Assembly (NCBI GenBank): GCA_944389465.1
Contig: CALXML010000001.1
Span: forward strand, 487-64,486
Direction: 5' to 3'
Source of the DNA: an uncultured Alphaproteobacteria bacterium
Lineage (GTDB): Bacteria; Pseudomonadota; Alphaproteobacteria; Rs-D84
Length of the DNA stretch: 64,000 nucleotides
Part shown: positions 6,794-61,941 of the stretch, in pieces
How the letters are laid out: every line of letters begins with the position of its first letter
Numbering within the stretch: position 1 is the first letter of the stretch
The notes under the pieces: generated by a model
What the model was told of the DNA's origin: nothing
The model's input: only the letters and a program-made list of their open reading frames with translations
Databases searched by the model: none
Position numbers and translations under genes: made by a program

Positions 6794-6888
6794 AAACCAC
6801 CGTTTTATTTCGGCAAAAATGGGGGATAAAAAATGCAGATTTCTGGAATTTTTTCTAAAATAAAAACCACGATCGTAATCGGTGGTTT
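6794..6888. promoter_or_regulatory. invertible DNA switch A: 12-bp inverted repeats flanking a 77-bp segment that carries the RBS, ATG and first codons
   Basis: AAACCACCGTTT (6794-6805) and AATCGGTGGTTT (6877-6888) match in inverted orientation at 11/12 positions. The segment holds GGGGG at 6821-6825 and ATG at 6833. In-silico inversion yields an in-frame MQISGIFSKIKTTIVIGGLIICATLSSAANA signal peptide. Confidence 0.7.
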
Positions 6889-6893
6889 GTTTT
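6856..6893. terminator. bidirectional intrinsic terminator (xthA terminator and OFF-state terminator of switch A)
   Basis: Hairpin CCACGAT-CGTA-ATCGGTGG with T-runs on both sides. One arm of the hairpin is the right inverted-repeat core. Confidence 0.6.
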
Positions 6894-6923
6894 CGGCATA
6901 TTTATTTGTTCGCTGTACCATAA

Positions 6924-6952
6924 ATTATATGGCACAGCGGGATTTTTATCAA
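6924..6952 (-). promoter_or_regulatory. sigma70-type promoter reading into switch A
   Basis: On the minus strand, TTGATA (6952-6947), a 17-nt spacer and TATAAT (6929-6924). It sits immediately after the xthA stop codon. Confidence 0.55.
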
Positions 6953-9439: not shown

Positions 9440-9612
9440 CGGTTTTTTATTTACTGGATTGCTTCGCTTTGCTCGCAATGACAAGAACTGTGGCTTTATA
9501 TAAATACGAGTAACTAGTAACCAGCAACGAGTAACCATCTTGTCATTGCGAGCCACGTTAGTGGCGCGGCAATCCATGTATATTTATGTCCGCGTCCGTT
9601 TGGACGCGGTAC
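9440..9612. repeat. mosaic REP/MITE-like palindromic repeat units (R2, GTTACTCGT-type short repeats, R1, R3)
   Basis: CTGGATTGCTTCGCTTTGCTCGCAATGACA, TGTCATTGCGAGCCACGTTAGTGGCGCGGCAATCCAT and TCCGCGTCCGTTTGGACGCGG recur at 13800-13925, 15005-15090 and 17058-17330. Confidence 0.8.
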
Positions 9613-13799: not shown

Positions 13800-13925
13800 A
13801 TTCGTGTTTTTTATATGTCATTGCGAGCCATCGCAGATGGCGTGGCAATCCATAATGTATTTGCTGACGCAAATAAGTATATAATGACTGGATTGCTTCG
13901 CTTTGCTCGCAATGACAATGTGGGG
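13800..13925. repeat. ~100-bp palindromic REP/MITE-like element (R1-spacer-R2)
   Basis: TGTCATTGCGAGCC...GGCAATCCA pairs with TGGATTGC...GCTCGCAATGACA. The same unit occurs at 17178-17272. Confidence 0.8.
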
Positions 13926-13951
13926 GGGCACGCGTCACGGGAATGACGGGG

Positions 13952-14230
13952 TTATTCCAACGGACAGGCGGATGTGAATACGTATGTGCCGGATGCGTCC
14001 GTATATTGCGTGTTTGCCGGTGCATACATAATGCATGAACCGGCGGGTGACGTCACCAAACAACTGGTTGTCGTGCCGGCGGATGTATATCCGGTGGGAC
14101 ATGAATTGTTCGCTATTGTCATATATTCTTCCTTTATCGTGACATAACCTGACGGACACGATGTTGACGGTGCGGCGGCAATTGCGCCGGCCGGCGCAAT
14201 TGTCAGAAACAATATAAAAATTCTTTTCAT
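13952..14230 (-). CDS. small Cys-rich secreted protein (92 aa), cassette I
   Basis: Signal peptide MKRIFILFLTIAPAGAIAAA, eight Cys, and C-terminal motif YTDASGTYVFTSACPLE. Its paralog lies at 17349-17627. Confidence 0.75.
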   Translation of the reverse strand: MKRIFILFLTIAPAGAIAAAPSTSCPSGYVTIKEEYMTIANNSCPTGYTSAGTTTSCLVTSPAGSCIMYAPANTQYTDASGTYVFTSACPLE

Positions 14231-14245
14231 ATTCGCCCCCCACGT

Positions 14246-14677
14246 TTAGTCAGATAGATTACTGAACATCGCAGAACGGACAGATGCATTGCTCGCCGCG
14301 TCGCGCGCACAGTTGTTCGCGCAAGAGACGGCACAATTAGACGCCGACCCGAAGTCGTAGCTGAACACCCAAGACGATACGGCCGGTGATGTCATTTTAC
14401 ACCAGCAATACCTGTCATCAGTACCGCCACTAATTTCCAAAGACGTCGCTGTTTGGCCAGCTGAACTGCCACTTGTGCTGGAACATTGACTTATGCCGCT
14501 TATTGCAATACTCGTCCCACTGGTGGTACAATTTGATTTCCAGTCAACAACATAACTCCCAGAATAAACATATGAACACGTTGTTGATGATGACAGTTTT
14601 ACGCATTTTGTGACGGCAAACGCCGGTGGAATTGTGGCCACGCAAATCAGGCCAGCAATTAATAAATGTTTTTTCAT
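14246..14677 (-). CDS. Cys/Ser/Thr-rich secreted protein (143 aa), cassette I
   Basis: CAGGAG RBS and ATG 14677. Signal peptide MKKHLLIAGLICVATIPPAFA. Its paralog lies at 17642-18064. Confidence 0.75.
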   Translation of the reverse strand: MKKHLLIAGLICVATIPPAFAVTKCVKLSSSTTCSYVYSGSYVVDWKSNCTTSGTSIAISGISQCSSTSGSSAGQTATSLEISGGTDDRYCWCKMTSPAVSSWVFSYDFGSASNCAVSCANNCARDAASNASVRSAMFSNLSD

Positions 14678-14907
14678 TTTCAAACTCCTGTTTTTTCTGA
14701 ATAAGAAAACCACCAGAAAATTCGGGTGGTCAGGAGGTTAGAAACAATTGAACGAATTGTGTCGCTTATTTTGATATTTCACGACCCTCCTGACCAAATA
14801 TCAGGAGTTGTTTTTCGTCGTAATAAAAACAGCGCACTTGCGCCGTATTATATATCGCGACGCGTTCACAGGGTTTCTACACCCCATTGACGGAATACCC
14901 ATCAACA
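14678..14907 (-). ncRNA. structured leader RNA, copy 2 (5' UTR of cassette I)
   Basis: Same architecture as copies 1 and 3, with compensatory variants: P2 CTCCTGA/TCAGGAG, anti-element CCTCCTGACC, P1 TAGAAAC/GTTTCTA. Terminator ACCACC...TGGTGG+TTTTC. TSS inferred. Confidence 0.6.
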
Positions 14908-15004: not shown

Positions 15005-15090
15005 CATTGATTATGGCTGGATTGCTTCGCTTTGCCCGCAATGACAAGGGGGGGCGAGTTACTCGTTACTAGTTACTCGTGACTCGGGAA
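15005..15090. repeat. REP/MITE-like repeat units (R2 variant plus GTTACTCGT-type short repeats)
   Basis: CTGGATTGCTTCGCTTTGCCCGCAATGACA followed by GAGTTACTCGTTACTAGTTACTCGTGACTCG. Confidence 0.75.
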
Positions 15091-17057: not shown

Positions 17058-17330
17058 TTGCTGGTAATTGGTTATTAGTTACTCGTAACTTGTAACTCGT
17101 GTATCCGCGTCCGTTTGGACGCGGATGTTTTTATTCACTGGATTGTGCCGCATAGTTACTCGTGTTTTTTGTTATATGTCATTGCGAGCCACGTCAGTGG
17201 CGTGGCAATCCATAAAAACGCATTTGCTGACGCAAATAAGTGTATAATGACTGGATTGCTTCGCTTTGCTCGCAATGACAAAAGAAGATTGCCACGGTCG
17301 GGCGTGCGTCCGCCCTCGCAATGACAAGGG
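17058..17330. repeat. mosaic REP/MITE-like repeats (short GTTACTCGT repeats, R3 hairpin, R1-spacer-R2 element, extra R2 fragment)
   Basis: The units are homologous to those at 9440-9612 and 13800-13925. Confidence 0.8.
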
Positions 17331-17348
17331 GGCACAGTACGGCATCGG

Positions 17349-17627
17349 TTATTCCAACGGACATGCTTGTTCAAATTCATATGTGCCGGATTCGTCAGTA
17401 TACTGCGTGTTTGCCGGTGCATACATTATACATGAACCAGATGGTGACGACACCAAACAACTGTCCGCTGTGCCGGCGGATGTGTATCCGGTGGGACACG
17501 AACTGTCCGATATTATTAAATATTCTTCTTCTATTGTTGCATAACCCGATGGGCACGATGTTGACGGTGCGGCGGCAAATGATGCACACGGCGTAATTGC
17601 AAAAAATAATATAAAAATTCGTTTCAT
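17349..17627 (-). CDS. small Cys-rich secreted protein (92 aa), cassette II
   Basis: MKRIFILFFAITPCASFAAAPSTSCPSGY...YTDESGTYEFEQACPLE. Start set at ATG 17627. Confidence 0.75.
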   Translation of the reverse strand: MKRIFILFFAITPCASFAAAPSTSCPSGYATIEEEYLIISDSSCPTGYTSAGTADSCLVSSPSGSCIMYAPANTQYTDESGTYEFEQACPLE

Positions 17628-17641
17628 ATTTGCCCCCACAT

Positions 17642-18064
17642 TTAATCGGACAGATTGCTGAACAACGCGGACCGGAAAGACGCATTGAACTGAGCGATGC
17701 TCGCACAGTTGTACGCGCAAAGGTCCGCGCAACGACCGCCCGACGAGTTCGCGCTGTAGAAAACCCAGCGCGACACCGCAGGTGATACCATTTTACACCA
17801 GCAATATTTGTTATCATTACTGGTTGAACTGGTCGTAACGGCGTCGGTGGTTGCACCAGCTGAACCGCCGTTTTGCGAACCGCAAAATGCAACACCCTGT
17901 ATTGATATGCCACCGCATGTTGCGGACCAATTTGATTGACCTGTTGCGCCCGAATAATCGGGACACGTTGTTGATGATGACAGTTTTACGCATTTGGTCA
18001 CGGCCATGGCCGGTGGAATTGTGGCCACACAAATCAGGCCGGCAATTAATAAATGTTTTTTCAT
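17642..18064 (-). CDS. Cys/Ser/Thr-rich secreted protein (140 aa), cassette II
   Basis: AAGGAGG RBS and ATG 18064. The N- and C-termini are nearly identical to 14246-14677, while the middle section has diverged. Confidence 0.75.
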   Translation of the reverse strand: MKKHLLIAGLICVATIPPAMAVTKCVKLSSSTTCPDYSGATGQSNWSATCGGISIQGVAFCGSQNGGSAGATTDAVTTSSTSNDNKYCWCKMVSPAVSRWVFYSANSSGGRCADLCAYNCASIAQFNASFRSALFSNLSD

Positions 18065-18252
18065 TCTAAACCTCCTTGTTTTCATTGCGAATGAAAAAAC
18101 CACCGAAATGAAGGTGGTTGGAGGTTCGAAACTATTAAAGGTAATAGTGCTGTTTATTCAATATATTCACAAGCCCTCCAACCGTGGTTGGAGATATTTT
18201 TAAATTTTCCTTTAAGAGGTTTCGACACCCCGTTAATGGAACGCCCATTAAC
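18065..18252 (-). ncRNA. structured leader RNA, copy 3 (5' UTR of cassette II)
   Basis: P0 GTTAATGG/CCATTAAC, GGGGTGT, P1 TCGAAAC/GTTTCGA, P2 CTCCAAC/GTTGGAG, P3 ACTATT/AATAGT, CCTCCAACC, terminator ACCACC...GGTGGT+TTTTTT. Confidence 0.6.
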
Positions 18253-32228: not shown

Positions 32229-32445
32229 TTGCACATCTGCTTGTGGTTGGCGTTGGTCACGTAACTCCCTGTACGTTCCCGTTGCCAACCACATGCGCAT
32301 CTGCACAATTCTAATTGATTTATGATTCGGATGTTGAAAACAGTGTTCGTGTAACTGTTTGTACACCCCCTGCGTTTTCCCGCACATATCTGGCCGGCTC
32401 TAATTGATTTGTTTTTTGTATTGGCGCATCTGCTTGTGGTTGTAT
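32228..32445. repeat. degenerate tandem ~88-bp repeats (about 2.3 units) with internal hairpins
   Basis: GC(A/G)CATCTGC occurs three times (32231, 32295, 32424), with the CTTGTGGTTG extension at 32231 and 32424 only. CTAATTGATTT occurs twice (32311, 32399). GTAACT..TGTAC occurs twice. There is a 10-bp stem TGTGGTTGGC/GCCAACCACA. Confidence 0.5.
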
Positions 32446-32456
32446 AATAAAAAAAT

Positions 32457-32485
32457 AACACGGATTTATCCCGTGTTGTTTTTTA
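32457..32485 (+). terminator. intrinsic terminator
   Basis: AACACGG-ATTTATC-CCGTGTT followed by GTTTTTT. Confidence 0.7.
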
Positions 32486-32503
32486 TAAAACTCATATTAT
32501 TAC

Positions 32504-32628
32504 TGGAAATAAACGGTGGTTTATTTTCGGCATAAGTTTTTATATCTTATAATATAATTTTGTCATATTTTCTGGGTAATTGTCAATTCTTGATTTTGCA
32601 TATTTTTAACCACCGTTTAGATTCGGCA
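32504..32628. promoter_or_regulatory. switch B: the same inverted-repeat core pair flanking a 90-bp AT-rich upstream segment (candidate invertible promoter/UTR segment)
   Basis: AAACGGTGGTTT (32511-32522) and TAACCACCGTTT (32607-32618) match in inverted orientation at 11/12. The left site has palindromic arms GGAAATAAA-CGGTGG-TTTATTTTCGGCAT. The right site is followed by the conserved TTTAGATTCGGCA...GGGGG...ATGCAA leader. Confidence 0.5.
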
Positions 32629-32648: not shown

Positions 32649-33527
32649 ATGCAAAAATCAAGAAATTTTTTAAAAGTAATGTTGGATATTGTGTGTATGT
32701 TGTGTGTATCAAACGCATTCGCAATTACCCATGTGACAGAAGGGCAATATTATAATGATTGGTATAAAAGTGATTTTGTTAGCAGGTCTGGTTTTTCGGG
32801 CTTGGATTGTGTTGAAGAGGGCTCTGTAAATAATTTAAACCAAAATTACCGTGATGATGCGTGTAAGTTTTTCTTGGTAAATACGAATTATATTTGTGGT
32901 AATGCAGGAACAGGAATGAGTTATGATACACATGGTTTTGATGGTTTGCCTGATTGTGGGACTGTGTCATCTGCGTGTCAGGGGTATGATGTTATGATAT
33001 GGGATAACGTCGTGCCCGAACCAACGCCAATTGGATGTGCAAACCAATGCGACAATTTGTGTCGTGCTGATAATGGTTGGGAAGAATTGGATGAGTTTGA
33101 ATGTGCAATAAAGCAGTATTGGCGAAATAATACAAATTGTGTTTGTGATAAAGTTGGAACGCCAGAAATATATTATGAAGATTGTCAATGTCGTTATGAG
33201 TATTATTGTAACAGTAATTGTGACGCATCAGGAAACGGTGATGATATGCCAGAATGTTTGCCGTGTCCCCCAAATGCGACTTGTAATGGTGGAAACGAAT
33301 TAAGAAATTTTATTTGCAGCAGTGGTTATACAGTTGCATATGCATTAAATTCAATACGAACCCCCACTGGATGTTGCCCTGTGTTATTAGATAAAACTGG
33401 TTTGGGCCGATATTTGGTAGATGCCGAAAATGATTATAAATGTTATGCAAATGGTGGCAGCTCCACGTTTTCATTTACTGATTCAATTGGAACATTCTAT
33501 TTTACAGAAGACTGTGAATATAAATGA
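32649..33527 (+). CDS. Cys-rich secreted protein, family member B (intact start, ON configuration)
   Basis: Signal peptide MQKSRNFLKVMLDIVCMLCVSNAFA, about 34 Cys, CLPCPPNATCNGG motif, and C-terminal TDSIGTFYFTEDCEYK. Confidence 0.8.
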   Translation: MQKSRNFLKVMLDIVCMLCVSNAFAITHVTEGQYYNDWYKSDFVSRSGFSGLDCVEEGSVNNLNQNYRDDACKFFLVNTNYICGNAGTGMSYDTHGFDGLPDCGTVSSACQGYDVMIWDNVVPEPTPIGCANQCDNLCRADNGWEELDEFECAIKQYWRNNTNCVCDKVGTPEIYYEDCQCRYEYYCNSNCDASGNGDDMPECLPCPPNATCNGGNELRNFICSSGYTVAYALNSIRTPTGCCPVLLDKTGLGRYLVDAENDYKCYANGGSSTFSFTDSIGTFYFTEDCEYK

Positions 33528-33541
33528 TTAATTATTAATAA

Positions 33542-34051
33542 TCATTTTTTTCCAAAGTGTTTTTTTAGTGTATTATATGCGTCGGTGATTTTTGTAAATT
33601 GTTTTGCGGCCACGTCTTTGTCACCGGTTGCAGTGTCGGGGTGGTGGCGTTTTGCCAATGCACGATATTTGGCCGATATTTCACGCCATGATGCGGTAAT
33701 TGGTAAATCAAATGTTGCAAATGCAGATGTTATGCGACCAGACAGGTTTGTGCGACGGGGTGGGGCTTTATCAAATGTTGCACGACCTGTGATAAAATCG
33801 TTTAGAAATTTTATATAATCTGCATTGTCGGCGTCGGCCTGTTTTTTATCTTTTAATGGTGCGCCAAATGTTTGGCGTTCCCAATCTTCTTCTATTTCGT
33901 CGGGGGTCATACCGGCATAATAATTCCAATTTTTATTATATTCAGCCGCGTGTTCACGGCAAAACCACCAATAATCTGTTAAATCGCGGTTTTTGGGTGC
34001 ACGACAAGTACCGGCCTTGGTGCAACCAGCATGGTCACATTTTTTTATCAT
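33542..34051 (-). CDS. J-domain (DnaJ-like) protein with a Cys-rich N-terminus
   Basis: C-terminal J domain (ISAKYRALAKRHHPDTATGDKDVAAKQFTKITDAYNTLKK) and N-terminal CDHAGCTKAGTC..FCREH. Confidence 0.8.
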   Translation of the reverse strand: MIKKCDHAGCTKAGTCRAPKNRDLTDYWWFCREHAAEYNKNWNYYAGMTPDEIEEDWERQTFGAPLKDKKQADADNADYIKFLNDFITGRATFDKAPPRRTNLSGRITSAFATFDLPITASWREISAKYRALAKRHHPDTATGDKDVAAKQFTKITDAYNTLKKHFGKK

Positions 34052-34914
34052 TTTTCAAAATCCTTGTTGGTTGCCAGTGGGTGATGTAATTGAACTGTTT
34101 CTTTTAACTTTTCTGGCAAAACGTGTGTATAAATTTGTGTTGTGGATATATCTTCGTGTCCCAGCATTGTTTGTATCGCGCGCAGATTTGCGCCACCCGC
34201 CAACAGGTGTGATGCAAATGAATGGCGCAGTACGTGCGGACTGACCCGATTGGGGTCAATGCCGGCCAATACCGCACATTTTTTCAGTATTTTAAAAAAT
34301 CCATCACGCGTGATATGGCCGCTTTTTCCAGTTGATGGGAAAACATATTTTGATTTGTCGTTACCACGAATTTCCAGCCATTTATGTAATGCAGCGCGGG
34401 CACGTTCATGCATGGGAACAATGCGTTCCTTGGCTCCCTTGCCATGGATTAATAATTTATCGCCCAAATTTGCAGTCATTGGTAATTCGCATAATTCTGA
34501 TACGCGCAGACCAGATGCATATACCAATTCCAGCATTGCGCGCAGTCTGGTTGCATTACGTACATCGCCCGCCGATGAAATTAATAATTCTATTTCATCA
34601 ACTGATAAAAATTTTGGTAATGTGCGTGTGCGTTTGGGTAATTCCAAGTTTGCTGCCGGATTTTCAGAAATAATTTTTTCCAGCATTAAAAATTTGTAAA
34701 AACCGCGCAGGGCACTGGCCTTGCGTGCAATGGAAGAGGGCCGTTCCTGCAGATGTGATAAATAATTTTGCACATCATTTGCTGTTGCGTTCATCAGACC
34801 GCCAGAAATATTTTCATCTGCCTGATGTAAATCACTGGCATAACTGGCCAATGTTTTTGTACTGCGACCACGTTCAGCAGACAGGGCTTCTAAAAAAACA
34901 TCTATGTAATTCAT
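34048..34914 (-). CDS. xerD: site-specific tyrosine recombinase XerD-like
   Basis: ASGLRVSELCEL, HGKGAKERIVP, HVLRHSFASHLLAGGANLRAIQTMLGHEDISTTQIYTHV (R-K-H-R-H-Y signature). Confidence 0.85.
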   Translation of the reverse strand: MNYIDVFLEALSAERGRSTKTLASYASDLHQADENISGGLMNATANDVQNYLSHLQERPSSIARKASALRGFYKFLMLEKIISENPAANLELPKRTRTLPKFLSVDEIELLISSAGDVRNATRLRAMLELVYASGLRVSELCELPMTANLGDKLLIHGKGAKERIVPMHERARAALHKWLEIRGNDKSKYVFPSTGKSGHITRDGFFKILKKCAVLAGIDPNRVSPHVLRHSFASHLLAGGANLRAIQTMLGHEDISTTQIYTHVLPEKLKETVQLHHPLATNKDFEK

Positions 34915-60541: not shown

Positions 60542-61275
60542 CCAAAACCAAACGTACACAATTAAAACAAGTTAAATCCGATTCGCGTGCAAACCGTCTG
60601 TTGCAGATTTTGCGCAGGACGGGGTTGTTTCGCTGGGAACGGCAAAGCACAAAGTCAGAAGAGGTGTTAAATATTCTGACGCATGGTATTGGTGTTGGTT
60701 TGGCAATTGCCGCATTAACGTTGTTGGTTGTGTTTGCTGCATTGCGTGGTGATGCGTGGGCGGTGGTGTCATGTGCGATATTTGGCCTGACGATGATAAC
60801 CCTGTATTTTGGGTCAACAATGTGTCATGCAACAATTGGGCGGCGCGGTGAATGTTTTTTTGAGGTTTGGGACAGTGTTGCCATATATGCATTAATTGCC
60901 GGTACGTATACGCCTTTTTTGCTGGTGAATTTACGTGGGGGGCTGGGATGGACTGTGTTTGGTATTTTGTGGGCCATTGTTATATGGGGGGCAATTGTTA
61001 AAATGCATAATCCGCGACAGCAACCAAAATGGGTTGTGGGGCTGTATTTATTAATGGGGTGGACGTTGCTGTTTATATTGCCGGCAATGTTACATAATAT
61101 TCCACCGCGTGGATTATGGTTTATTTTGGCGGGAGGATTGTCATATTCATTGGGGGTAATATTTTATTTGTGGCGACGGATGAAATATTCGCATGCGATT
61201 TGGCATCTGTTCGTAATTGGGGGCAGTGTGTGTTTCTTTTTCGCAGTACTGTTTGGTTGCATAATTGATTTATAA
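60538..61275 (+). CDS. hemolysin III / PAQR family membrane protein
   Basis: Seven TM segments with the EEVLNILTHGIG N-terminal motif and a C-terminal HAIWHLFV. Confidence 0.85.
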   Translation: MTKTKRTQLKQVKSDSRANRLLQILRRTGLFRWERQSTKSEEVLNILTHGIGVGLAIAALTLLVVFAALRGDAWAVVSCAIFGLTMITLYFGSTMCHATIGRRGECFFEVWDSVAIYALIAGTYTPFLLVNLRGGLGWTVFGILWAIVIWGAIVKMHNPRQQPKWVVGLYLLMGWTLLFILPAMLHNIPPRGLWFILAGGLSYSLGVIFYLWRRMKYSHAIWHLFVIGGSVCFFFAVLFGCIIDL

Positions 61276-61282
61276 AAAAGTC

Positions 61283-61312
61283 TTGCGGGTGGGGCGCACA
61301 GATTGATATAAT
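61283..61312 (+). promoter_or_regulatory. promoter reading into switch C
   Basis: TTGCGG, an 18-nt spacer, then TGaTATAAT (extended -10). The block TAAAAAAGTCTTG directly after the upstream stop codon is shared with locus A. Confidence 0.5.
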
Positions 61313-61336
61313 ATACATAAAAGATATGCCGAAAAT

Positions 61337-61433
61337 AAACCACCGATTAATATCGGTGTTTTTATTTTTTTGAAAATACCGAAAAACTGCATTTTTTATT
61401 CCTTTCTGTTGTACCGAAATAAAACGGTGGGTT
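61337..61433. promoter_or_regulatory. invertible DNA switch C: inverted repeats flanking a 79-bp segment carrying the RBS, ATG and first codons (currently flipped, OFF)
   Basis: AAACCACCGATT (61337-61348) and AAACGGTGGGTT (61422-61433) match in inverted orientation at 10/12 with an identical 6-bp core. ATG lies on the minus strand at 61392-61390. In-silico inversion gives an in-frame MQFFGIFKKIKTPILIGGFIMLIGFSTGASA. Confidence 0.7.
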
Positions 61434-61437
61434 TATT

Positions 61438-61941
61438 ATGTTGATTGGTTTTTCAACGGGTGCATCTGCGACGACGACGACATGCCCAGATTGTTATAAA
61501 TGTGTGAAGTATTCAGGCAGCAGTTGTTTGCAATGTGAATACGATCCCGATTATTGTATGGGAGAGGTTGTCTGTGGCGATGGCAAGGTTTGGGATGCAG
61601 ATGCACTTGAATGTGTATGTGACCCAGCAAAAATATGTTTTGGTACAGTGGACCCAGACACCTGTGAATGTATTGAAGAAGAGGTGGCTTGTGAAGATGG
61701 GCAATATCACAATGGAAAGGTGGGATTATTGGCCCAGTGTTTGGATTGTCCGACGTTGAATGGGTGTCTTCGTGGTCCGCACAGTACTGGCGATGGTGCT
61801 GCTGGTATAACAGATTGTTATTATGGCGTTGATGCCATATGCACAGACAGTGCCGGCAGTTATGTTTTTTCAGAAGATTGCCGTTACGATGATTCTGATT
61901 CTTCTGAAGAAGAGGTTGAAGAAGAGATTGAAATTAATTAA
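61438..61941 (+). CDS. Cys-rich secreted protein, family member C; N-terminal signal-peptide exon currently inverted (OFF)
   Basis: 167-aa ORF with 24 Cys, CLDCPTLNGC motif, C-terminal TDSAGSYVFSEDCRYD and an acidic tail. As assembled it starts MLIGFSTGASA with no n-region. Confidence 0.75.
   Translation: MLIGFSTGASATTTTCPDCYKCVKYSGSSCLQCEYDPDYCMGEVVCGDGKVWDADALECVCDPAKICFGTVDPDTCECIEEEVACEDGQYHNGKVGLLAQCLDCPTLNGCLRGPHSTGDGAAGITDCYYGVDAICTDSAGSYVFSEDCRYDDSDSSEEEVEEEIEIN

Follow-up and report, generated by a model that had tools for sequence, protein, structure and literature searches.

A probable 79-nt leader inverton in front of a Cys-rich secreted-protein gene of Candidatus Enterousia

Introduction

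The RecV-dependent cwpV switch of C. difficile (Emerson et al. 2009, PMC2784873) is the closest functional relative of the element described here. There, the invertible region is preceded by a promoter that is not part of it, one orientation forms an intrinsic terminator in the 5' leader and so brings about the OFF state, and the recombinase is encoded elsewhere (PMC2784873). The element of this study, locus C, occupies positions 61283 to 61941 of a 64,000-nt stretch (the window) of contig CALXML010000001.1, assembly GCA_944389465.1, from an uncultured alphaproteobacterium of the lineage Rs-D84. Locus C is very likely an inverton of the partial intergenic type that governs a Cys-rich secreted protein of Candidatus Enterousia: a fixed promoter faces a 79-nt segment between inverted recombination sites, and the gene behind it obtains a complete signal peptide when that segment is inverted.

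Several other inversion systems offer points of comparison. Hin, Gin and Cin act on segments of ~1-4 kb, have the invertase gene within or adjoining the segment and require an enhancer with Fis, and the vsa system of M. pulmonis is a Mycoplasma variable lipoprotein system. For the Vpma system of M. agalactiae, the Xer-like tyrosine recombinase Xer1 is the invertase (PMC2268961). Partial intergenic invertons described so far are mostly long and of the shufflon type, exchange homologous domains and significantly exceed intergenic invertons in length (PMC10028968), and a pipeline for gene-altering inversions required repeats of at least 22 bp linking two coding sequences (PMC9881135). As the core of the locus C family measures 6 bp and its repeats are short, such screens would have missed it.

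Candidatus Enterousia, of the order Rs-D84, is uncultured, lives in human and animal guts with a reduced genome of ~0.75-1.0 Mb, and almost nothing is known of its biology (PMC12306168). Homologues of the protein encoded at locus C bear the name Candidatus Enterousia intestinigallinarum.

Organization of the switch

The window holds three homologous loci (A, B and C), all in the OFF configuration. The features of locus C are as follows; L117 and L118 are contigs of a related lineage that carry the same locus.

61283-61312, plus strand: fixed promoter, read from the sequence, with a -35 element TTGCGG at 61283-61288, an 18-nt spacer and an extended -10 element TGaTATAAT (TGATATAAT) at 61304-61312.
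61326-61358, plus strand: left recombination site, with promoter-side arm ATGCCGAAAATAAA, core CCACCG at 61340-61345 and inner arm ATTAATATCGGTG, from the site consensus, enrichment and the L117/L118 junction.
61341-61371, plus strand: OFF-orientation intrinsic-terminator-like element, with a 7-bp stem CACCGAT/ATCGGTG and a TAAT loop followed by TTTTTATTTTTTT, from a terminator scan and folding.
61346-61424, no strand: invertible segment, 79 nt between the 6-nt cores, reverse-complemented within the same flanks in L117/L118.
61346-61405, minus strand: leader cassette, with a Shine-Dalgarno (SD) sequence AAAGGAAT at 61405-61398, a spacer N5, an ATG at 61392-61390 and 47 nt coding for MQFFGIFKKIKTPIL-I, from translation of the inverted form.
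61413-61437, plus strand: right recombination site, with inner arm ACCGAAATAAAA, core CGGTGG at 61425-61430 and gene-side arm GTTTATT; the site is part of the coding sequence (codons ..I-G-G-F-I..).
61425-61941, plus strand: body of the cargo gene, encoding the rest of the signal peptide, GGFIMLIGFSTGASA, and a mature protein TTTTCPDCYKC... with 10% Cys; called from the ATG at 61438 as 167 aa.

The promoter stands outside the invertible segment, 8 nt past the stop codon of hlyIII (61273-61275). Its -35 element matches at 3/6 positions, which is why the consensus scan missed it. The extended -10 element is a perfect match and makes the promoter credible, its function being predicted. The promoter block is homologous to that of locus A and of other family members. 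Downstream, the left arm and core together read ATGCCGAAAATAAACCACCG (61326-61345), and between this site and the right one, with cores CCACCG and CGGTGG and arms on each, lies a segment that holds part of an open reading frame (ORF), namely an ATG plus 47 nt. The remainder of that ORF begins at the right site, which is itself coding.

As assembled, the gene starts at the ATG at 61438 with MLIGFSTGASA, behind an in-frame TAA that is 6 codons upstream and not 8, as the first-pass annotation had counted. This N-terminus has no n-region, and its h-region is too short for a signal peptide. When the 79 nt are inverted in silico, the gene translates to MQFFGIFKKIKTPILIGGFIMLIGFSTGASATTTTCPDCYKC. The leader cassette, whose minus strand reads ATGCAG at 61392-61387, then supplies the first 15⅔ codons of a complete signal peptide, MQFFGIFKKIKTPILIGGFIMLIGFSTGASA/TTTTCPD, in which an n-region rich in Lys and an h-region precede the cleavage motif ASA. 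Since the right core is inside the signal peptide and the left core in the 5' leader, inversion alters the product, as in a partial intergenic inverton. In the homologous protein P0006, TTCPDCYKC directly follows a signal peptide that is ordinary and uninterrupted; the mature protein of locus C is therefore meant for export, and its N-terminus as assembled is a truncated signal. The distance to the TAA apart, a second reading of locus C found the cores, the 79-nt segment, the minus-strand ATG, the promoter and the hairpin where the first-pass annotation had placed them, and reproduced the in-frame leader that it had predicted.

Frame restoration and naturally inverted alleles

Restoration of the reading frame is a property of the family. 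In-silico inversion of every leader-type OFF locus puts the ATG in frame with an ORF of 144-324 aa at 13 of 14 distinct loci (L100 fails). The leader is conserved as MQxSGIFSKIKTPILIGG (16 loci) and the segment is 77, 78 or 79 nt long. The 47 nt between the ATG and the right core (AT/C-GGT-GG), which had been pointed out for loci A and C, recur at all other leader-type loci examined. For independent loci, the chance of such an outcome would by our own arithmetic be ~6e-6, a figure that overstates the significance because they are paralogues. Frame and leader have clearly been maintained through much divergence, and the earlier argument that frame restoration at two loci was unlikely to be coincidence now extends to 13 loci.

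Natural in-frame ON leaders were present on three contigs (L092, L114 and L154). The ON protein of L092 starts MQISGIISKIKMPILNGGLF, and that of L154 (P0045), behind a promoter like that of locus A, starts MQISGIFSKIKTTIVIGGLFIALILCALPQQTLA. In addition, an all-against-all comparison returned five pairs of contigs in which the same locus, with flanks 85-99% identical, has a site-bounded segment of ~80-110 nt in opposite orientation. In one of them, L146 and L137 (OFF) stand against L114 (leader ON, with exact junctions), and the segments of 77-79 nt are homologous to that of locus C. In another, L139 against L140 and L004, the inverted segment carries the promoter, an architecture like that of locus B. 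Two more pairs are L055 against L087 and L011 against L134 and L142, and the fifth is locus C itself, the window against L117/L118 in the same hlyIII-X-thrS context. Both orientations occur in nature at one locus with breakpoints at the repeats, cleanly at L146/L114, L139/L140, L055/L087 and L011/L134 and with an aberrant junction at locus C. The natural ON alleles and these inversions, bounded by the predicted sites, uphold the proposal that locus C is a second copy of one invertible switch, with a gene that is complete only when the segment is inverted. We infer that such switching is also active within populations.

A composite arrangement was observed at L114:4941-5330. Compared with L146:6691-7010 and L137:4656-4960, it is a three-site switch in which the promoter segment and the leader segment have both been inverted in place, and it has an extra divergent gene driven by the flipped promoter. 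L146 and L137 lack that gene and the third site and resemble the fixed-promoter loci A and C.

The L117/L118 lineage is ~85% identical overall, and its segment is reverse-complemented precisely between the predicted cores. The junctions read CCACCG-A-TTTATTTCGG, where T was expected, and ATTAAT-CGTGGG, one base short of the expected CGGTGGG. There the ATG of the site arm (ATGCCGAAAA) reads in frame into the gene, for a protein of 212 aa (P0025). The allele may be a locked one, the product of an aberrant recombination or the result of plain mutation. The stretches concerned, L117:2930-3200 and L118:235-505, correspond to 61240-61500 of the window and also differ by ACACCG -> ACGCCG. The conserved ATG of the site arm was considered as a general start codon and rejected: it is out of frame or blocked by a TAA in the window and in frame only in the L117 allele.

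A search of contigs by way of the neighbouring HlyIII and ThrS proteins yielded no allele of locus C that was ON and in frame. A profile search with the leader consensus returned only small OFF-state antisense ORFs, such as MQFF...GGLFSAYLL, and in other assemblies the OFF-state leader is called as a minus-strand ORF of 40 aa. Assemblies show the majority orientation, so OFF dominates, which does not imply that switching is absent.

Sister loci and the site family

The two sister loci in the window are the following.

6797-6952, minus strand: locus A, a paralogous switch in OFF, with TTGATA at 6952-6947, TATAAT at 6929-6924, the left core at 6885-6880 and the right core at 6802-6797.
32514-32615, no strand: locus B, of the same site family, with sites at 32514-32519 and 32610-32615 and a 90-nt segment (32520-32609) that carries a promoter.

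Locus A has a 77-nt segment (6803-6879) with the leader ATG on the plus strand at 6833, and its gene extends to 5884. Alignment of loci A and C gave 80% identity over promoter and switch, in agreement with the homology that had been proposed for them. Locus B differs in that its promoter is inside the invertible segment, which is not so at locus C; TTGACA at 32586-32581 (minus strand) points away from the gene at 32649-33527, which has its own ATG and signal peptide. Contigs orthologous to locus A (L129-131 and L150-153) are all OFF, and loci A and B are OFF in all other assemblies fetched through the flanking XthA and TrxB. Site patterns of 17-24 nt have 3-4 matches in the window, against 0.00-0.36 expected from shuffles, and it was these patterns that brought locus B to light as a third locus.

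In L150 (1040-1290), and also in L151-L153, the inner arm of the right site of these locus A orthologues reads TTG CCG AAA AAA ATC GGT GGT in frame, and gene callers predict from it, in the OFF orientation, MPKKIGGLIICATLSSAANA, a plausible short signal peptide. Window loci A and C carry a TAA in frame at the corresponding position. The spacer between trxB and locus B (32229-32510) has internal repeats, CAACCACAAGCAGATG[C/T]GC twice and AAATCAATTAGA twice, plus a terminator, and the flipped-away promoter of locus B reads a 9-codon ORF, MSFIKNNTG, and then that terminator. Elsewhere in the window, a 32-nt intergenic element resembling repetitive extragenic palindromic (REP) sequences, CTGGATTGCTTCGCTTTGCTCGCAATGACAA, occurs in four copies (9453-9484, 13887-13918, 15016-15047 and 17250-17281), two of them within 65-nt repeats that are 95% alike. 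Rfam returned no family anywhere in the window.

Beyond the window, a scan of species-representative genomes with CCGAAAAYAAACCACCG, which gives chance matches elsewhere as well, found many metagenome-assembled genomes (MAGs) of Enterousia or 'uncultured Alphaproteobacteria' with several matches per genome, and a metagenome scan added further family loci on human-gut contigs. The site was not found in the viral contigs searched. Aligned from 35 promoter-side (left) and 30 partner sites, the consensus is ~34 bp long and dyad-symmetric, ATGCCGAAAAyAAA-CCACCG-wTTnnnTTCGGCA, with an invariant, asymmetric centre A^CCG and partner cores CGGTGG, CGGTCA or CGGTCG. Three architectures share these sites: leader-flip (loci A and C), promoter-flip (locus B) and segments with a terminator only. 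At some loci a promoter flip and a leader flip stand in series (L114 against L146).

The putative terminator

The hairpin of locus C (CACCGAT-TAAT-ATCGGTG, 61341-61358) is followed by a 13-nt T/A run, TTTTTATTTTTTT, at 61359-61371, and the opposite strand of this element encodes the leader residues KKIKTPILIGG. It folds at -14.1 kcal/mol (z = -4.2 against shuffles) and was called terminator-like by the scan. Across the family, left junctions with the T-run (OFF) have core hairpins of ~-7.6 kcal/mol on average, and ON or direct junctions, from which the T-run is absent, average ~-2.5 kcal/mol. Hairpin and T-run occur together only in the OFF orientation, and the OFF hairpins differ in register and sequence, for example CACCGAT/ATCGGTG and CCACC/GGTGG. 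At the terminator-only loci (L065, L070, L058 and L052), the former leader has decayed to a perfect hairpin plus T7, an even improved version of the element, in a segment that is still invertible; the gene brings an SD and ATG of its own, downstream of the right site. Inversion can change only the terminator at these leaderless loci, which argues that termination alone could serve as the switch there. At locus C, termination is probably a second layer of the OFF state. The missing SD, ATG and n-region suffice for OFF without it.

The Cys-rich cargo

The body of the cargo gene is intact and conserved across many strains and species, with identities from 92% down to 43%. Nearly all ORFs controlled by the family are 150-320 aa long, with signal peptides and 4-10% Cys, and 18 of 31 cargo proteins fall into one BLASTP cluster formed outside the leader region. 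The three cargo proteins of the window matched no Pfam or NCBIfam family, and the AlphaFold model of the cargo is poor (pLDDT 59.6, pTM 0.29). The most economical reading of these sequences is that the cargo forms a variable repertoire of Cys-rich proteins that would be secreted or displayed at the surface.

At the predicted mature N-terminus of the locus C protein, GCG(ACG)3ACA (61468-61482) codes for a run of Thr. This stretch varies by strain (TTTT, TTTGTT, VTTGTV and VAVDTV), and in L121 a deletion immediately behind it shifts the frame. Cys-rich secreted proteins are also encoded by two paralogues, at 13950-14713 and 17347-18082 (minus strand), that share 72-90% DNA identity, upstream DNA included. 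They have ordinary signal peptides and are without switch sites; not every Cys-rich secreted protein here is therefore controlled by an inverton.

Candidate recombinase

The window contains a single recombinase gene.

34048-34914, minus strand: XerD-like tyrosine recombinase, Pfam Phage_integrase 3.6e-43.

This gene passed the NCBIfam tyrosine-recombinase subfamily, scored 296 bits against a cut-off of 329.6 for the XerD equivalog and was below the XerC cut-off too. It is located 0.5 kb past the end of the locus B gene and shares a 4-nt overlap with the next gene downstream, whose 169-aa product has a DnaJ domain at its C-terminus; 15 nt separate the end of this pair (33542-34914, minus strand) from the locus B cargo's stop codon. 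The XerD-like protein is a candidate for a trans-acting invertase; among small genomes, Xer1 of M. agalactiae is a precedent for a Xer-like invertase (PMC2268961). A phmmer search with a Hin query detected no serine recombinase, either in the window or across ~300 kb of family loci, and no candidate recombinase came from viral contigs. To our knowledge, the switch site has no obvious similarity to the Xer dif site.

The dyad arms that flank the invariant 6-bp core would suit a tyrosine recombinase, and the invariant central AC together with the tolerated differences in neighbouring core positions would also fit a 2-bp crossover of the serine type. In most OFF loci CCACCG is directly followed by A at the left site and by T at the right one; the ON allele L092 has T at both junctions and L117 has A at both, and the variable right cores CGGTCA and CGGTCG remain on the gene side. 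These junctions are too few to tell a 2-bp serine-type from a 6-8-bp tyrosine-type crossover.

Proposed mechanism and alternative explanations

In the proposed mechanism, the fixed promoter (61283-61312) would fire constitutively into the switch. In the OFF state, the transcript would meet the hairpin formed by core and inner arm and then 13 U/A, and would mostly terminate after ~50 nt; RNA that reads through would carry no SD, start codon or charged n-region. A trans-acting recombinase would recognise the two ~34-bp dyad-symmetric sites and exchange strands in or beside the invariant asymmetric core, inverting the 79 nt between the cores. In the ON state, the U-run would become the Lys codons of the n-region and the hairpin would become TPILIGG, the SD and ATG would face the gene, and the right core ATC-GGT-GG would join the 47-nt leader in frame, yielding MQFFGIFKKIKTPILIGGFIMLIGFSTGASA/TTTTCPD.... 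The same recombinase system would flip promoters at sister loci such as locus B, and promoter and leader in series at some. The cell may thereby vary which members of the Cys-rich surface or secreted family are made.

A number of observations weigh against locus C being an active inverton of this kind. Concerning the sites, the two arms are imperfect (21 nt, 81% complementary), the gene-side arm of the right site is 1 nt further from its core than in the left site, and the invariant core is short (4-6 bp). With 79 bp between them, the sites are about as close together as is known for intramolecular recombination. Some 40 other family loci have no serine or tyrosine recombinase gene within ~4 kb, which means that the enzyme would act in trans. 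Concerning the alleles, locus C is OFF in all of twelve further assemblies of close strains, an exact look-up of 10 predicted ON proteins in a collection of 15 billion proteins found none of them, and the 1-nt deletion in L117/L118 puts the MQFF leader out of frame and into a TGA. The terminator raises difficulties as well. The first-pass annotation had placed a strong one directly after the fixed promoter in OFF. Hairpin and T-run stood up to scan and fold, but the palindromic hairpin survives in ON, followed by a weaker, moderately U-rich tail, GGUUUAUUAU, so that the putative terminator is orientation-biased rather than orientation-exclusive. Moreover, in Ca. E. intestinigallinarum (L004:3940-4140 and L140:1950-2150), a leader segment whose start is GTG or decayed, and whose right core has degenerated to CGGGGG, stands fixed in the orientation of the terminator between an invertible promoter and an intact gene, MKRTQIVFILMSG, which is awkward for a strong terminator.

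Several of these points would also be expected of a frozen relic, in which the family is real but locus C no longer inverts, its right arm being displaced by one base, and is permanently OFF with a silent or decaying gene. The uniform OFF state of the twelve close-strain assemblies, the lack of an ON protein on record, the 1-nt offset of the gene-side arm, the aberrant junction of the only inverted allele and the frameshift in the gene body of L121 all suit such a history. The gene body is nevertheless intact and conserved from 92% to 43% identity across strains and species, and leader, SD and frame are kept in every strain. In the L117 lineage the locus C segment did invert, with breakpoints precisely at the predicted cores, and sister loci that demonstrably flip are likewise mostly OFF. 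We consider a relic unlikely. An artefact, in which assemblers randomly flipped a small bubble at short inverted repeats, is barely conceivable. The segment between the repeats is shorter than a read and metagenome assemblers do collapse variants; a 79-nt segment and imperfect repeats of 6-21 nt, however, fit within single reads or k-mers, where orientation is read directly, the same orientation recurs in 12 independent assemblies made by different assemblers, and flipped alleles have point differences of their own.

Alternatively, there might be no inversion, the repeats being a terminator or REP-like palindrome behind hlyIII and the gene being translated from the ATG at 61438 or a nearby start. 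The hairpin and T-run could indeed be the hlyIII terminator, the 167-aa ORF is predicted by gene callers, and in the locus A orthologues the site-arm TTG gives a plausible short signal peptide (MPKKIGGLIICATLSSAANA) in OFF. A promoter between hlyIII and the hairpin argues otherwise, as does MLIGFSTGASA, which is unfit as a signal peptide for a Cys-rich protein whose homologue P0006 has a full one, and the in-frame TAA in the site arm excludes a TTG or ATG start there at window loci A and C. This reading also leaves frame restoration at 13 of 14 loci, the natural ON alleles and the same-locus inversions unexplained, and we consider it highly improbable. An inverton of the partial intergenic type is the interpretation that we retain for locus C.

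A broader scheme is more tentative, and we would sooner doubt it than adopt it. It would have dozens of mini-invertons of ~80-90 bp run by one trans-acting recombinase, possibly a housekeeping-like XerD homologue, in a reduced genome of ~0.9 Mb. Their site DNA would be triple-coded, as recombinase site, as intrinsic terminator on one strand and as N-terminus of a signal peptide on the other, and serial flips of promoter and leader would vary a Cys-rich surface repertoire like that of the Giardia VSPs. If true, these mini-invertons would be among the smallest functional invertible elements known.

Significance and comparison with known systems

Three switches in 64 kb, and many across the clade, in front of Cys-rich secreted proteins suggest that variation of the surface or secretome is a major investment of these bacteria, as in mycoplasmas. 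This points to an intimate way of life, possibly in association with a host or with cells, under pressure from immunity or phages. Locus C would also illustrate how little DNA an ON/OFF switch by inversion needs, with one stretch serving as recombinase site, terminator and signal-peptide codons. Invertons of less than 100 bp with a short core are below the repeat-length thresholds of current screens, and gene callers annotate their cargo wrongly as N-terminally truncated.

The locus C family is not a new category of switch: it consists of very small, dual-coded leader invertons in an unstudied clade. With cwpV, locus C shares a fixed outside promoter (as judged by sequence), a terminator-like element in OFF, a predominance of OFF and the absence of a recombinase adjoining the locus; as with cwpV, the recombinase of locus C would be located elsewhere and serve several switches, and the product would be a surface protein of a gut bacterium. 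The two differ in that the locus C region measures 79 bp, carries an SD, a start codon and 15⅔ codons, and has its right site inside the ORF. Locus C is also from a different phylum, without similarity in site sequence and without an identified RecV homologue.

As in partial intergenic invertons and gene-altering inversions (Chanin et al., PMC10028968; Milman et al. 2023, PMC9881135), one repeat is in a coding sequence, the other is intergenic and the protein is changed. Unlike those, the tiny cassette of locus C, with its invariant core of 6 bp, adds or removes only the N-terminal export signal. Promoter invertons such as E. coli fimS and those of Bacteroides capsules likewise set ON and OFF by site-specific inversion, and locus B and many relatives are exactly of that type, whereas the promoter of locus C stays put.

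The Mycoplasma systems resemble the present one in small genomes, in a multigene family of variable surface proteins and in a 5' inversion that joins an expression signal to a gene body. There, however, one expression site is shuffled among silent clustered genes and the recombinase gene is adjacent. In Enterousia each gene has its own promoter and a private mini-cassette, the loci are scattered behind housekeeping genes, and a recombinase is adjacent possibly only near locus B. Finally, locus C has in common with Hin, Gin and Cin the dyad-symmetric sites around an asymmetric centre, and its central AC would fit a 2-bp crossover, but its 79 nt are too short for an invertase gene or an enhancer.

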